Origin: Eledone cirrhosa
Taxonomy: Eukaryota
Reading direction: 5' to 3'
Length of the DNA stretch: 64,000 nt
Assembly: GCA_964016885.1 (NCBI GenBank)
Contig: OZ024743.1
Coordinates: forward strand, 320,230,001-320,294,000
Part shown: piece by piece, positions 1 through 30,074 of the stretch
Layout: each line of letters opens with the position of its first letter
Numbering within the stretch: the stretch's first letter is position 1
Program-made: the position numbers and the translations under genes
The notes under the pieces: model-generated
Database searches by the model: none
Told to the model about the DNA's origin: nothing
The model's input: only the letters and a program-made list of their open reading frames with translations

Positions 1-1625
1 TCATTGAACCAAGAAGTCTTCCTGCCAATCGGCGCAAGACCAAGCCTCTTTTGCAAGCAGGATTTAACAGCTGAAGCAGAAACTTCTGTGCTGAACAATC
101 TCTGAATTTGGATGCAATTGGATCTGCATAACTGGCCTTCATTTCCTTTTCCACCAATGCTTCCCGTTCTATCCAGGAGGTCGCTCTGGAACTGCCAGTT
201 TTCTGGGCTTCTTTGGCTTTAGGTACTCAAGTTGCAGATAACAAGATGGTGATCACTTGACAGCTCAGCCCCTCTCTTAACTCGAGTCCAATCTAGCTGA
301 TGAACAGTGTGGTTTTCTCCGCGGACGCAGCATAGCCGTCCAAATATTCACACATCGTGGGAGTATTGCCAAGATATATATTCTTGTGTTATCGAACTTC
401 GGAAGACATATGATCACATTCCACGGGACCTGCTATGGAAGTTTGTGCAGGAGTATGGGATTGATGGTCAGCTTCTTGCTGTCTTGATGTCTCTATATGA
501 ATTCCCGAAACCATTCAATGTCGGAATCGGAATCTCCTGTTAATTATTTACATAAACAGGATTGTATGCGCAGCCGGTTTGGAAGTGGTATCGTGTCTGG
601 CATTTGTAAAATGGGTCGCATGGAATTTTCAGACGACATGGTGCTACATAACTCGACAGATCTTCGACTTCCGCATCTCACCTTCCTTCTGAAGGATACT
701 TAAAGAAAAGGATAAGTTGGTGTCCGGAGAGAAAGGTGTTTGCCCTCAGTCCTTTTAACCTCGTCCACCATATTACCTCTCTCGCCATAGCCACCAGACA
801 GAGGAAAACCGTCTCTCCTTCGTTCTTAAATGAAGGCGGCGGGGTGATCCTCACGATTGTCTCGGCTGACAACTGGATGCGTCCCACACATGACAGCAGC
901 TGTTCGACATAATAGGTTTGATGCCGAGTGCTGCATGGCTGGAATTAAAATCAGTGCTGCAAAAACTGAGACACTCGTCCACTCGAGGAAGCCTGCAAAC
1001 TGCACGCTACATATGAGTGGAGTTTCACTGAAGCAGGTAGAGAAGTTCAAGTATCTCGGGGCCGTGTTCACGAGTGATGGAAGGCAGGACGCTGAATTAA
1101 ATGCAAGAATTGCAAAAGCTGGAGTAGTAATCCGCCACCTGCAGCATTCAGAAGGGAGGTAGGCGTAAAAGCAAAACTCGCTATCTTCAATTAGTCTTTC
1201 GTGCCCACCCTTACCTATGGTCATGTATCTTGTTTAATGACCGAATAATACGATCGCGAATACAAGTGGCAGAAATAGAATTCCTCTGATGGGTATTTAG
1301 AGTACAGGAATCTGAGGCTCATTATATGTAGAACCGCTACTTCTCCGAATTGAGAGATAACAGCTCCAATACTATGGGCATGTGGTTAGAATGTCTCGGG
1401 TAAGAATCGCTGGACAGATTTTACGGAAAAAACCAACCGGCAGAAACCCAGGGGTAGATCCCGATTAAGATGGTTAGATAACATCCATGAGCTTGGCTGG
1501 TCACGCTTGGGGATCCAGCCGGATCAGTTGGAGACGGTAGCTTCTGACAGGACTAGCTAGAAGGAGTGTTTGAGGACTCTGACCCTACGACCCTCTCGGG
1601 AAAAAGTGGGTGATGAAGAGTAAGA
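1..1625 (+). mobile_element. Decayed RTE-clade LINE, copy 1 (the inverted 5' part runs off the window)
   Basis: RT remnants EQCGF, YDHIPRDLLW..QEYGIDG, GIKISAAKTE, VEKFKYLG; many stops; GAAGAG/TAAA-type tail. Confidence 0.8.
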
Positions 1626-2319
1626 GTAAAAGAAGTAAATAGATAAATAAGTAAATAGATAAATAAGTAAATAAATGTCCAGTTATTGTTATCTACCCTT
1701 CAGTCTTGTATTATCACATAAGTAAGTTCTCTCTGTTAAAGTTCGGTTTAATGTTTAACAAGCAGTATTGCGATTCTATTCACTGACATGTGATGATGAA
1801 TATGGGATTCCTCTTCTTTAAATATCAACAAAAGTGGTCATTTGTTTCTACACCTATGTTACTGGAGAGGAAACTATGATAACTAATTCCACAGTGATAT
1901 TAATAGCCATAGATATGACGTTCTACATATATATACATGCACACACGCGCTCGCGCGTCGCACACACACACATATATATATATTATTTTTATTTTGAAAC
2001 GGAAGCAGATAAATCCACGAACCTTGAGACCTACAAACACGGCCAAGTATAAATGCATAACGTATGCATGATTTTCATCGAAATATGTATATATAAACTT
2101 TTGTTAACAAAATTTTAAGTTTCAAATATCATAAAGAGACAAAAACATAAATATACATAAGTGCATTTATAATTTTATCCTGATAAATCAAATTCAGCTA
2201 ATGATGTCATTTGCAATATAATTACATGTAAAGCTTTAGAAACTAAATTTATTGTCTGTAATAGAAATTGATTTTGACATAGTACTAATTTTTTTATTTT
2301 TTTTATTTTCCTTATTAAG

Positions 2320-2337
2320 CACCACCCCTACAACCAA
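2320..2337 (+). CDS. 18-nt Pro-rich linker microexon (APPLQP), repeat copy 1
   Basis: Polypyrimidine tract + taag|CACCACCCCTACAACCAA|gtaagt; phase 1-1, in frame with the EGF and vWA exons. Confidence 0.75.
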
Positions 2338-4448
2338 GTAAGTAGCTGCATCTCTCTCTTTCTCTCTCTCTCTCACTCTCTCTCTCTCTCTCTATCTATC
2401 TATCTATCTATCTAGCTAGCTATCTATCTACCTATCTCTCTCTCTATCTCTCTCTCTCTCTCTCTCTCTCTCTCTATATATATATATATATATATATATA
2501 TATATATATATACACACATACACATATATACATATATGTCTATCTTTCTGTTTTTATATTTCTCTCTCTCTCTCTCTCTCTCTCTCTCTCTCTCTCTCTC
2601 TCTCTCTTTCTCTCTATCTATCTATCTATCTATCTATCTATCTATCTATCTATCTAATATCTATCTAAATATCTGTCTATCTATCTATTTATCAATTTAT
2701 CAATCCATCCAACATCCCATTCAATATTCAATCCTGGCATTGTTACTGTCAAACCACGCACATTAAAAAAAAAAAACATTTCTTTATCAACAGCCTCAAT
2801 GCTGACTATAATTCCTCTCCAACTTTAGAAAGAGGATCTCAATTCGTGGCTAGGAACTTGCTGTTTTCTTCCTCAAATCTGCTTCCTTATAAGGGTCATT
2901 TTACCTGCCACATCAGTTTAATGTTTCGTCACTTTCCTTAAGATGCTATGGCAATTTCACGTTAGGCTAGCTCTCAAGTTAAAGTAATTCGAGAGTCCAG
3001 TGGGTTTTGTTTGAGATTGTGTTCTGGGTGTCGAAACCGCGGGTGTGTAGAAATGGTCGACCATTTTTTTTTTCACTCTGTATACAAGTTATATTTTTCA
3101 CGTTCTGTATACAAGTTATATTTTAACCTCATTGACTCATTATGATGATTCGGAAGACCCATTTTTAAGTTCTCACTGAAAAGACACTGGTAGCTTGGAC
3201 ATTTCTACTGCTGGATGCTACTTGCCCCTGGCCATTACTGCTGATAATGATGAAGTAGTGGGACATATTGCCTTGCTTAATTTGTGACAATTTCCGGAGC
3301 CTCAACTGATGGCAATATAGTAGCAATAAGCTATGGTTTGTCTTAATATCTATTACGCAGATGTCAGCAAAACCTCTGATGTCAAATATATCTACGTTGT
3401 TATCAACATTCACTTCGAGAGTGCCGTTAGAGTCGACATGTCTAATAAGCTAGAATCGAAGACAGGCTGGGATAGACAATACCATGGCCAATATTTGGTA
3501 AGGCGTGTCAGAAGAAAATGATATCAACTTGTATGCCAGGAAAGGCTCAGATGCTTCAGGGTCAAAACAAAAACGGAAGTACTAGTTCATGAAGCGAAAG
3601 TTTGGTCATGAAGAACTATGAGAATAGAATAATAAAAACGGATCCTAAAACTAAATGGAGAACGTACAAGCATTACTGTTGACTCCATTACCTCTGAAGG
3701 CCCGGTTCTTCCCAATTCTGAATATATACACGAGTATGCTCCAATTGACAACCATATGCACTGGACAGTATGACAAATCTTCATGAAACTGGACAAGAAG
3801 CAGTATAAAAATATACTAAACACGGTATATGACATCAGCTTGGCGAAAAACCTCTGGAATATGCCCATAAAAAACAGAAAATGAAATCAAGGCAAACTAT
3901 CAAAATAAAATAGTCAAAGATTTAACAAACCCACACGTGTACACTAATATATATTGAAATTACTACTGACCAAAATATTGCTAGAAAAATAGTGAAACAA
4001 CTGTCACTATACAATATGTAGTGTAAAAACACTGCTGTATGTTAAAAATAACAACAAAACATTGACGCTGTACTAGGGTGCACAGGGCAATAATCTTTCC
4101 ACAGAAAAACACTGCTAGGAACAGCTCACACCATGGGCAAGGCATTATCAATTCGAAGCAAATTTTAATGGTTAATAATTTAGACACAGGGACACAGTTT
4201 TATAGGTAGAATAATGCAACAAATTCGACATCAGCCATTTCGTGGTACTTTATTTATCGACCTTGAAATGTTGAACAGGAAATTTGACCTTGAGGTTATT
4301 CACTTAAGAATATAAAGAGATTAAAAAAAGTAACGGTTTCTGATTAAGGCACAGTGCATTATCAATTTTGCCAATTGACCGCCATCGACATCTTTCTTTT
4401 TCTTTACAATTAAACATGTTCTTGCATTTAATTTCCACTTTTATTTAG

Positions 4449-29086: not shown

Positions 29087-29778
29087 GTAAAAGAAGTAAA
29101 TAGATAAATAAGTAAATAGATAAATAAGTAAATAAATGTCCAGGTATTGTTATCTACCCTTCAGTCTTGTATTATCACATAAGTAAGTTCTCTCTGTTAA
29201 AGTTCGGTTTAATGTTTAACAAGCAGTATTGCGATTCTATTCACTGACATGTGATGATGAATATGGGATTCCTCTTCTTTAAATATCAACAAAAGTGGTC
29301 ATTTGTTTCTACACCTATGTTACTGGAGAGGAAACTATGATAACTAATTCCACAGTGATATTAATAGCCATAGATATGACGTTCTACATATATATACATG
29401 CACACACGCGCTCGCGCGCGCACACACACACATATATATATATTATTTTCATTTTGAAACGGAAGCAGATAAATCCACGAACCTTGAGACCTACAAACAC
29501 GGCCAAGTATAAATGCATAACGTATGCATGATTTTCATCGAAATATGTATAAATAAACTTTTGTTAACAAAATTTAAGTTTCAAATATCATAAAGAGACA
29601 AAAACATAAATATACATAAGTGTATTTATAATTTTATCCTGATAAATCAAATTCAGCTAATGATGTCATTTGCAATATAATTACATGTAAAGCTTTAGAA
29701 ACTAAATTTATTGTCTGTAATAGAAATTGATTTTGACATAGTACTAATTTTTTTATTTTTTTTATTTTCCTTATTAAG

Positions 29779-29796
29779 CACCACCCCCACAACCAA
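29779..29796 (+). CDS. 18-nt Pro-rich microexon (APPPQP), copy 3
   Basis: taag|CACCACCCCCACAACCAA|gtaagt; one substitution relative to copies 1-2. Confidence 0.75.
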
Positions 29797-30074
29797 GTAA
29801 GTAGCTGCATCTCTCTCTTTCTCTCTCTCTCTCACTCTCTCTCTCTCTCTTCTCTCTCTCTCTCTCTCTCTCTCTCTCTCTCTCTCTCTCTCTCTCTCTC
29901 TCTCTCTCTCTTTATGTAAAAGTAAATCATTTAATGCGTGTTTATTCTACGTCCATGTGTAAGAGCAAGCAATAGATTCTTCAGAATCTGGCATAAAGTT
30001 GTAAATTTCTTAGGGTAGATCATCTTCAAGGCGAGGTAATTTTAAAATTAGCTATAAATAAACAAATTATTTGA

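Follow-up and report, generated by a model that had tools for sequence, protein, structure and literature searches.

A five-unit vWA-EGF-microexon array within a predicted secreted-protein gene of the octopod Eledone cirrhosa and its probable history

In the octopod Eledone cirrhosa, a 64,000-nucleotide stretch of contig OZ024743.1 (assembly GCA_964016885.1, positions 320,230,001 to 320,294,000, forward strand; hereafter the window) covers the end of a large tandem array inside a single gene, which we call copy B and which is one of five paralogues in a cluster (A, B, C, D/F and E). We propose, with a probability of roughly 0.7, that copy B underwent a recent five-fold intragenic amplification of a frame-symmetric cassette made up of a vWA exon, an EGF exon and a microexon, likely by unequal crossing-over from one junction seeded in (TC)n tracts. 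At the same strength, we take the product to be likely near-neutral and unlikely to be the main form expressed. This class of mechanism is well known, and the array is a fresh example of it with an unusually readable history.

Structure of the array and its host gene

Self-BLAST of the window aligned positions 1-10230 with 14065-24337 (98.7% identity, offset 14064) and positions 1-2459 with 27463-29911 (98.5%, offset 27462, the sum of 14064 and 13398), in agreement with the periods of 14064 and 13398 bp read by an initial annotation made from the letters alone. Each full unit carries three phase 1-1 exons with AG/GT ends: an 18-nucleotide microexon, a 567-nucleotide exon matching Pfam VWA (E=7e-51) and a 111-nucleotide exon matching EGF (E=1e-7). 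The initial annotation had assigned this trio to three successive occurrences in the window. Two full sets were recovered; the third occurrence holds the microexon only. The trio itself is real, but the proposed order of microexon, vWA and EGF did not hold: because sister copies A, D and E have the microexon only between EGF and the first VWD exon (VWD1), the duplicated cassette is vWA-EGF-microexon.

The suspicion that the array runs on upstream was correct, and three further full units and one lone microexon were found there. The whole array spans about 75 kb, begins about 45 kb upstream of the window and comprises six microexons, five vWA exons and five EGF exons; the window holds the last 2.2 of the five units. 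Microexon-to-microexon periods are 14,193, 14,270, 14,025, 14,063 and 13,396 bp, the shorter last period fitting the absence from the last unit of about 670 bp (window 11003-11674) that belong to one arm of an intronic inverted repeat. The array features in the window are as follows.

1..29911, plus strand: 3' part of the five-unit tandem array
2320..2337, plus strand: microexon m3, 18-nucleotide Pro-rich linker, phase 1-1, T allele, followed by vWA
2351..2709, no strand: duplication junction, where the (TC)n tract behind the microexon runs into the (TC)n/(TA)n tract found ahead of vWA in sister copies A, E and F
4455..4875, plus strand: dead vWA pseudo-exon with frameshifts and stops, present in every unit
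5115..5681, plus strand: vWA exon of unit 4, 567 nucleotides, phase 1-1
9088..9198, plus strand: dead EGF pseudo-exon with in-frame TGA and lost donor GT, present in every unit
9977..10087, plus strand: EGF exon of unit 4, 111 nucleotides, phase 1-1
11000..12918, no strand: intronic inverted-repeat pair, arms of about 900 bp, 93.7% identity, left arm mostly absent in the last unit
16383..16400, plus strand: microexon m4, T allele
16414..16758, no strand: second (TC)n junction tract
19157..19723, plus strand: vWA exon of unit 5
24084..24194, plus strand: EGF exon of unit 5
29779..29796, plus strand: terminal microexon m5, ancestral C allele, followed by VWD1
29810..29911, no strand: (TC)n tract at the array end

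The unit-4 vWA exon has DxSxS, T and D residues, which we take to be the metal-ion-dependent adhesion site (MIDAS) motif. Earlier rounds of duplication are still visible in the dead vWA and EGF pseudo-exons that every unit carries.

A 28-exon model of copy B extends over 117,648 bp, with all AG/GT sites present and one terminal stop, and predicts a protein of 1,773 residues in the order signal peptide, five vWA-EGF-linker modules, VWD-C8-TIL, an EGF-like exon and two PAN-like exons. The model frame is open and all three cassette exons are phase 1-1, so that gain or loss of a unit preserves the reading frame, as had been claimed. Exons 1 and 2, with the ATG and the signal peptide, are found outside the unit, some 53 kb upstream of the window, which likewise upholds the placement of the duplication within one gene; a TATA-like box is present. 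The signal peptide is split over these two exons, and a search for one single signal-peptide exon gave no match. Downstream of the array the model continues with the following exons.

31030..31280, plus strand: VWD exon 1
32051..32358, plus strand: VWD exon 2
33969..34243, plus strand: C8 exon
34668..34867, plus strand: TIL exon
45381..45552, plus strand: Cys-rich EGF-like exon, predicted by homology
49365..49382, plus strand: predicted 18-nucleotide Pro-rich linker exon
50181..50216, plus strand: 36-nucleotide Pro-rich linker exon, predicted from similarity to Octopus linkers
52165..52398, plus strand: PAN/Apple-like exon 1, assigned through homologues with PF00024
57028..57243, plus strand: PAN/Apple-like exon 2, assigned on the same basis (homologues with PF00024)
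+64,094 to +64,131: last coding exon, just beyond the window

Pfam, scanned directly on six exons, returned PF00092, PF00094, PF08742 and PF01826 (VWA, VWD, C8 and TIL); the PAN label derives from PF00024 on homologues. Copy B is predicted from its sequence to encode a secreted matrix protein.

Paralogues, junctions and proposed history

Genome-wide searches of the 3.0-Gb genome recovered ten vWA exons at 98-100% identity together with five VWD exons at 99-100%; all of them fall in a stretch of 1 Mb. These searches gave no further near-identical vWA or VWD exon at 320.494-320.540 or 320.72-320.83 Mb. Copies A, C and E have one vWA-EGF module each. Gene D/F is a two-VWD gene with two vWA exons and one vWA-EGF module, plus a separate array of 11 EGF exons. 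All four sister copies thus have one module, compared with five in copy B. The upstream EGF exon of A, E and F is absent from B and C.

The arrangement of microsatellites around the cassette points to how the array began. A (TC)n tract starts behind every microexon, and in A, E and F vWA is preceded, at a distance of about 2-2.7 kb, by a second tract, (TC)n/(TA)n. At all vWA-facing microexons (6/6, five in B and one in C) the first tract runs directly into the second. Exon position 10 is T in 6/6 vWA-facing microexons and C in 5/5 VWD-facing ones. Because the vWA-facing microexons all share both the T allele and the fused (TC)n junction, we infer that these sequences point to a single seed junction in the B/C ancestor. 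The first B unit has lost its vWA and EGF through two deletions, with 2 and 6 nucleotides of shared letters at the joints, and copy C aligns with B across this deletion region. The deletions leave vWA-EGF flanked on either side by a direct repeat of about 4.4 kb, and long direct repeats are a standard substrate for unequal crossing-over. Phasing of single-nucleotide polymorphisms in a 4.3-kb flank showed that the B units are mosaics, and vWA alleles of unit 4 recur in D, E and F; together these patterns suggest repeated exchange and conversion.

From these observations we propose the following sequence of events. The ancestral order is that seen in A, D and E, vWA-EGF-microexon-VWD, with a (TC)n tract in the intron ahead of vWA and another right behind the microexon. 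One exchange between both tracts could then have produced, in the B/C ancestor, the microexon-(TC)n-vWA junction that is now observed. Two deletions with short homology, whose junctions can be read but whose place in the order is conjectural, would have taken out the first vWA and EGF. A solitary microexon would then remain within a direct repeat flanking vWA-EGF, as is found in copy C. The five mosaic units of B would have arisen afterwards, as unequal exchange and conversion recurred. If all exons are spliced, the predicted product would be 1,773 residues long instead of the 845 predicted with a single module, and its five MIDAS-bearing vWA domains would be expected to raise avidity for a matrix ligand.

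Other features of the cluster deserve mention. It occupies G000:C4:319.93-320.95 Mb (the same contig as the window) and consists of at least five segmental copies of more than 100 kb, in both orientations and with patchy identity. Between A and B, divergence is 0.45% in exons against about 1.9% in the vWA-EGF segment, a disparity that suggests gene conversion. The EGF array of gene D/F (G000:C4:320,624,879-320,653,589, minus strand) has 11 exons at a period of about 3.0 kb, all open with AG/GT ends. In copy E the start codon has changed from ATG to AGG and the rest of the compared frame is open (G000:C4:320,864,685-320,864,815). A divergent PAN-like exon (83% DNA identity) lies upstream of four gene copies (G000:C4:319,945,673; 320,142,363; 320,469,941; 320,839,113), carries an in-frame stop in two of them and is likely the tail of another family member.

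Genomic support, transcripts and alternative explanations

The initial annotation had named half-depth coverage, as expected of uncollapsed haplotypes, as a threat to the array. The five units of B are mutually distinct: they differ pairwise by 12-31 substitutions over 6,557 masked columns (0.2-0.5%), each with private sites. Over the same columns, copy C differs from the B units by 20-33 substitutions and A, D and E differ from B and C by 109-141. We compared contig depth over eight stretches in each of the DNA runs X1 and X2, which together with X3 represent one sample. Depth fitted the five-unit assembly (X1, r 0.96, root-mean-square error (RMSE) 3.7; X2, r 0.86, RMSE 5.9) better than a collapsed B (X1, r 0.49, RMSE 10.9; X2, r 0.63, RMSE 9.6), and the ratio of vWA to downstream depth was 2.35 in X1 and 2.09 in X2 against an expected 2.0, or 1.2 if collapsed; these depths are unitig means, not copy numbers, which can be read only as within-family ratios and come from a sample that is maybe the assembled one. 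They favour the assembly and have no bearing on polymorphism. The analysis drew on four of seven listed runs, namely X1, X2, X4 and the RAD-seq run X5, whose cover of the exons was thin.

On distinct units and depth ratios together we reject uncollapsed haplotypes as unlikely. An assembly artefact in which haplotype versions of a shorter array were placed one after another is improbable. The unit divergence could lie in the allelic range, a 14-kb unit is near long-read length and no long read spanning a junction was seen. Five mutually distinct units, however, cannot be two alleles of one unit, no N gaps occur in the window or in the 200 kb upstream, and two haplotypes averaging 2.5 units would, by our own arithmetic, predict a ratio of about 1.5, below the values observed. 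It is still harder to regard the units as partial whole-gene duplicates with their own promoters, or as silent pseudogene fragments, a reading to which we give hardly any credence. The large two-orientation segmental duplications of the locus, the loss of the ATG from copy E and the death of older duplicated exons in the same introns would suit it, but each gene copy has exons 1 and 2 a single time, outside the units, and B has an ATG, a TATA-like box and an open frame. The position of exons 1 and 2 outside the unit largely refutes the whole-gene version.

Evidence on expression comes from run X4, another sample of unrecorded run type that we took as RNA only from its intron-skipping contig. 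This single contig, of 2,571 nucleotides at a depth of 68.9, skips five GT..AG introns and joins vWA, EGF, 18 letters, VWD1, VWD2, C8 and TIL in that order, thereby confirming the exon borders and the microexon length. It starts one letter ahead of vWA, continues unbroken and unbranched through EGF, microexon and VWD1, and fully accounts for the X4 depth on the vWA and EGF bins (66.1 and 13.7). The dominant form in X4 is therefore likely single-module, since with five modules in the transcript a return to vWA would be the more frequent path. Contigs drop rare forms, the joints given are the best-supported ones and the individual may lack the array; absence of the long form is thus not established. 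Single-module transcripts had been named in the initial annotation as evidence against a variable-module protein, and the only spliced contig does have a single module, but it stems from another sample and could derive from sister copy C, which it matches in mismatch counts at 5/6 exons; B and C are separated by 10 coding differences.

Patterns of substitution give no signal of purifying selection on the units. Mean pairwise divergence among B units is 0.35% in the vWA and EGF exons and 0.33% over the whole segment. Private coding changes over the five paralogues comprise 10 that are synonymous and 34 that are non-synonymous, close to the synonymous fraction of 0.21 expected under neutrality. 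With point changes alone considered, youth by itself would keep all five units open with a probability of about 0.69. Nothing in the sequences points to selection for five modules.

These data bear on the proposal that the array is a functional, polymorphic coding variable number tandem repeat (VNTR), in which multi-module proteins are made from B and their module count, differing from one individual to the next, tunes binding avidity, much as LPA KIV-2 does for the size of apo(a). We regard this as doubtful, though well ahead of the two explanations above. It would account for the open 1,773-residue frame with intact splice sites in all units, and it is consistent with the B/C allele carried by the X4 contig at two diagnostic VWD2 sites (32173 and 32273), with the independent 11-copy EGF array in the neighbouring gene and with Octopus gene models that vary up to seven vWA domains at 97-100% identity and (vWA-EGF)x2 at 100%. 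Set against this are the unbroken X4 contig that leaves no vWA or EGF depth to explain, its closeness to single-module C and the lack of a purifying signal; judging from unitig branching, the microexon of a five-module transcript should lead on to vWA four times as often as to VWD.

Recent, likely near-neutral amplification from a (TC)n-seeded junction accordingly remains our preferred explanation. Apart from the limits of the depth comparison and the lack of a spanning read, several points weigh against it. Given how common (TC)n tracts are here, chance may account in part for their presence at the junction. SNP phasing of the flank gave no clean crossover points. Copy C nests among the B units with internal bootstrap values of 29-62, and the tree is compatible with expansion of B as well as with contraction of C. 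Homology is the basis for predicting the 5' exons, 3' linker exons, PAN-like exons and last exon, none of which was seen spliced. That the protein acts in matrix, in mucus or as an adhesive, with raised avidity, would follow from domain content only.

The introns of copy B also contain several other elements. One (window 38151-44118) is flanked by 737-bp direct repeats at 98.4% identity and has long minus-strand open reading frames (40718-43350) with reverse-transcriptase-like and GIY-YIG-like motifs, which we take to be Penelope-like; Pfam gave no match for its 714-residue frame. Nested fragments resembling the reverse transcriptase of long interspersed nuclear elements lie on the minus strand of the last intron (57380-62394). 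An interspersed element of about 700 bp, flanked by (ATGT)n, occurs three times at 93-97% likeness (34989-35679, 50993-51690 and 52728-53419), and an inverted repeat pair of 407 bp at 97.5% identity lies at 54787-55729. Elsewhere in the assembly, the 165-kb contig G000:C107 bears a far larger array of vWA exons (about 10-152 kb), with dozens of copies at a period of about 1.64 kb and after them a second type at a period of about 2.8-3.2 kb, 40-44% identical to the window's vWA; one unit apparently has small Pro/Thr-rich exons. This array could represent a giant vWA-repeat protein or an assembly artefact.

Octopus homologues, known systems and implications

The best named homologues of copy B are Octopus proteins, predicted as 'zonadhesin-like' or 'von Willebrand factor-like'. 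Zonadhesin has a membrane anchor, a feature not predicted for B, whose highest 19-residue hydropathy beyond the signal peptide is 1.22, with no hydrophobic stretch (the C-terminus being predicted). In von Willebrand factor several D assemblies precede the A domains and are accompanied by VWC domains and a C-terminal cystine knot, whereas in B the vWA domains precede a single VWD and the C-terminus is PAN-like. The domain descriptions in PMC4948705 draw similar distinctions. Of the zonadhesin features given there, MAM domains were found neither in the 28-exon model (six exons scanned directly) nor in the homologues' precomputed Pfam lists, and in place of multiple VWD-C8-TIL units B has one and neighbour D/F two. 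B does share with von Willebrand factor, by Pfam, the combination of VWA with VWD-C8-TIL. The PTS (Pro/Thr/Ser) region and at least three VWD domains that the same text gives for gel-forming mucins have no counterpart in B, with 14% Ser+Thr and 4% Pro overall and one VWD. We therefore reject zonadhesin, von Willebrand factor and gel-forming mucin as identities on domain features, partly from that source and partly from general knowledge. The best solved-structure matches of the vWA exon are mussel proximal thread matrix protein 1 (PDB 4cn8) and collagen VI alpha-3, which have tandem vWA domains in extracellular matrix proteins. This likeness is a domain-only match; unlike them, B has no collagen helix, and VWD-C8-TIL and PAN-like domains follow its vWA.

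Among nine Octopus homologues, all database gene models, five (P0005, P0026, P0039, P0046 and P0059) have internal vWA or EGF repeats at 94-100% identity and the same domain set and order as B: vWA/EGF repeats, VWD-C8-TIL and two PAN-like domains. P0046 has seven vWA, P0059 five and P0026 (vWA-EGF)x2; vWA identity to the window's gene is 56-58% for P0005, P0026 and P0039, and P0005 shares the signal-peptide start. Five vWA-EGF pairs, as in B, were seen in 0/9 of these proteins. Judged on these gene models, amplification recurs across the octopod family. No tested function was found for the homologues examined, and literature searches found no paper on this locus or protein family. Two studies of O. 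maya describe a 'zonadhesin' transcript in the oviducal gland and white body (PMC8976471, PMC6522055), which could not be tied to B's family; the unnamed VWA and VWFD proteins that another study reports from octopus skin mucus (PMC11431876) were not tied to it either.

Large-unit coding VNTRs offer the closest structural comparison. In PMC11201333, LPA KIV-2 (unit of about 5.6 kb with two exons), NEB (unit of more than 10 kb) and DMBT1 are given as examples; LPA KIV-2 and NEB resemble the B array as multi-kb tandem units within one gene that comprise whole exons and introns, are near-identical with paralogous variants and alter domain count. The array in B differs in its 14-kb unit of three exons, with two domain types plus a microexon, and in belonging to one of five recent paralogues. 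The likeness to LPA KIV-2 is one of genomic structure, and individual variation and long-form expression are hypothetical for B. The variable module number proposed at the outset stands as a difference between paralogues here, one versus five, and among Octopus gene models. Joint duplication of several domains, with breakpoints in introns and extracellular EGF-type modules at exon junctions, was described by Bjorklund et al. 2006, who note that duplicated segments and flanking motifs are hard to identify (PMC1553488). Compared with the cases in that text, the junction here is still readable, in (TC)n tracts.

Module number varies in several instances: five vWA-EGF here, 11 EGF next door and up to seven vWA in O. 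vulgaris. It is tempting, if speculative, to see an undescribed octopod family of secreted vWA/EGF-VWD-PAN proteins in which module number serves as a dial, with microsatellite-flanked phase-1 cassettes amplified independently across paralogues and species, expressed, individually variable and providing graded avidity for mucus, matrix or gamete recognition.

The locus offers a snapshot of the birth of a domain repeat. Within 1 Mb it brings together paralogues with the ancestral single module, copy C as a primed intermediate, the resulting array of five units, the seed junction in its microsatellite and the dead pseudo-exons of earlier rounds. If the long form proves to be expressed and variable, copy B would offer an invertebrate parallel to size polymorphism of the LPA type, in a family of octopod proteins that has yet to be characterised.

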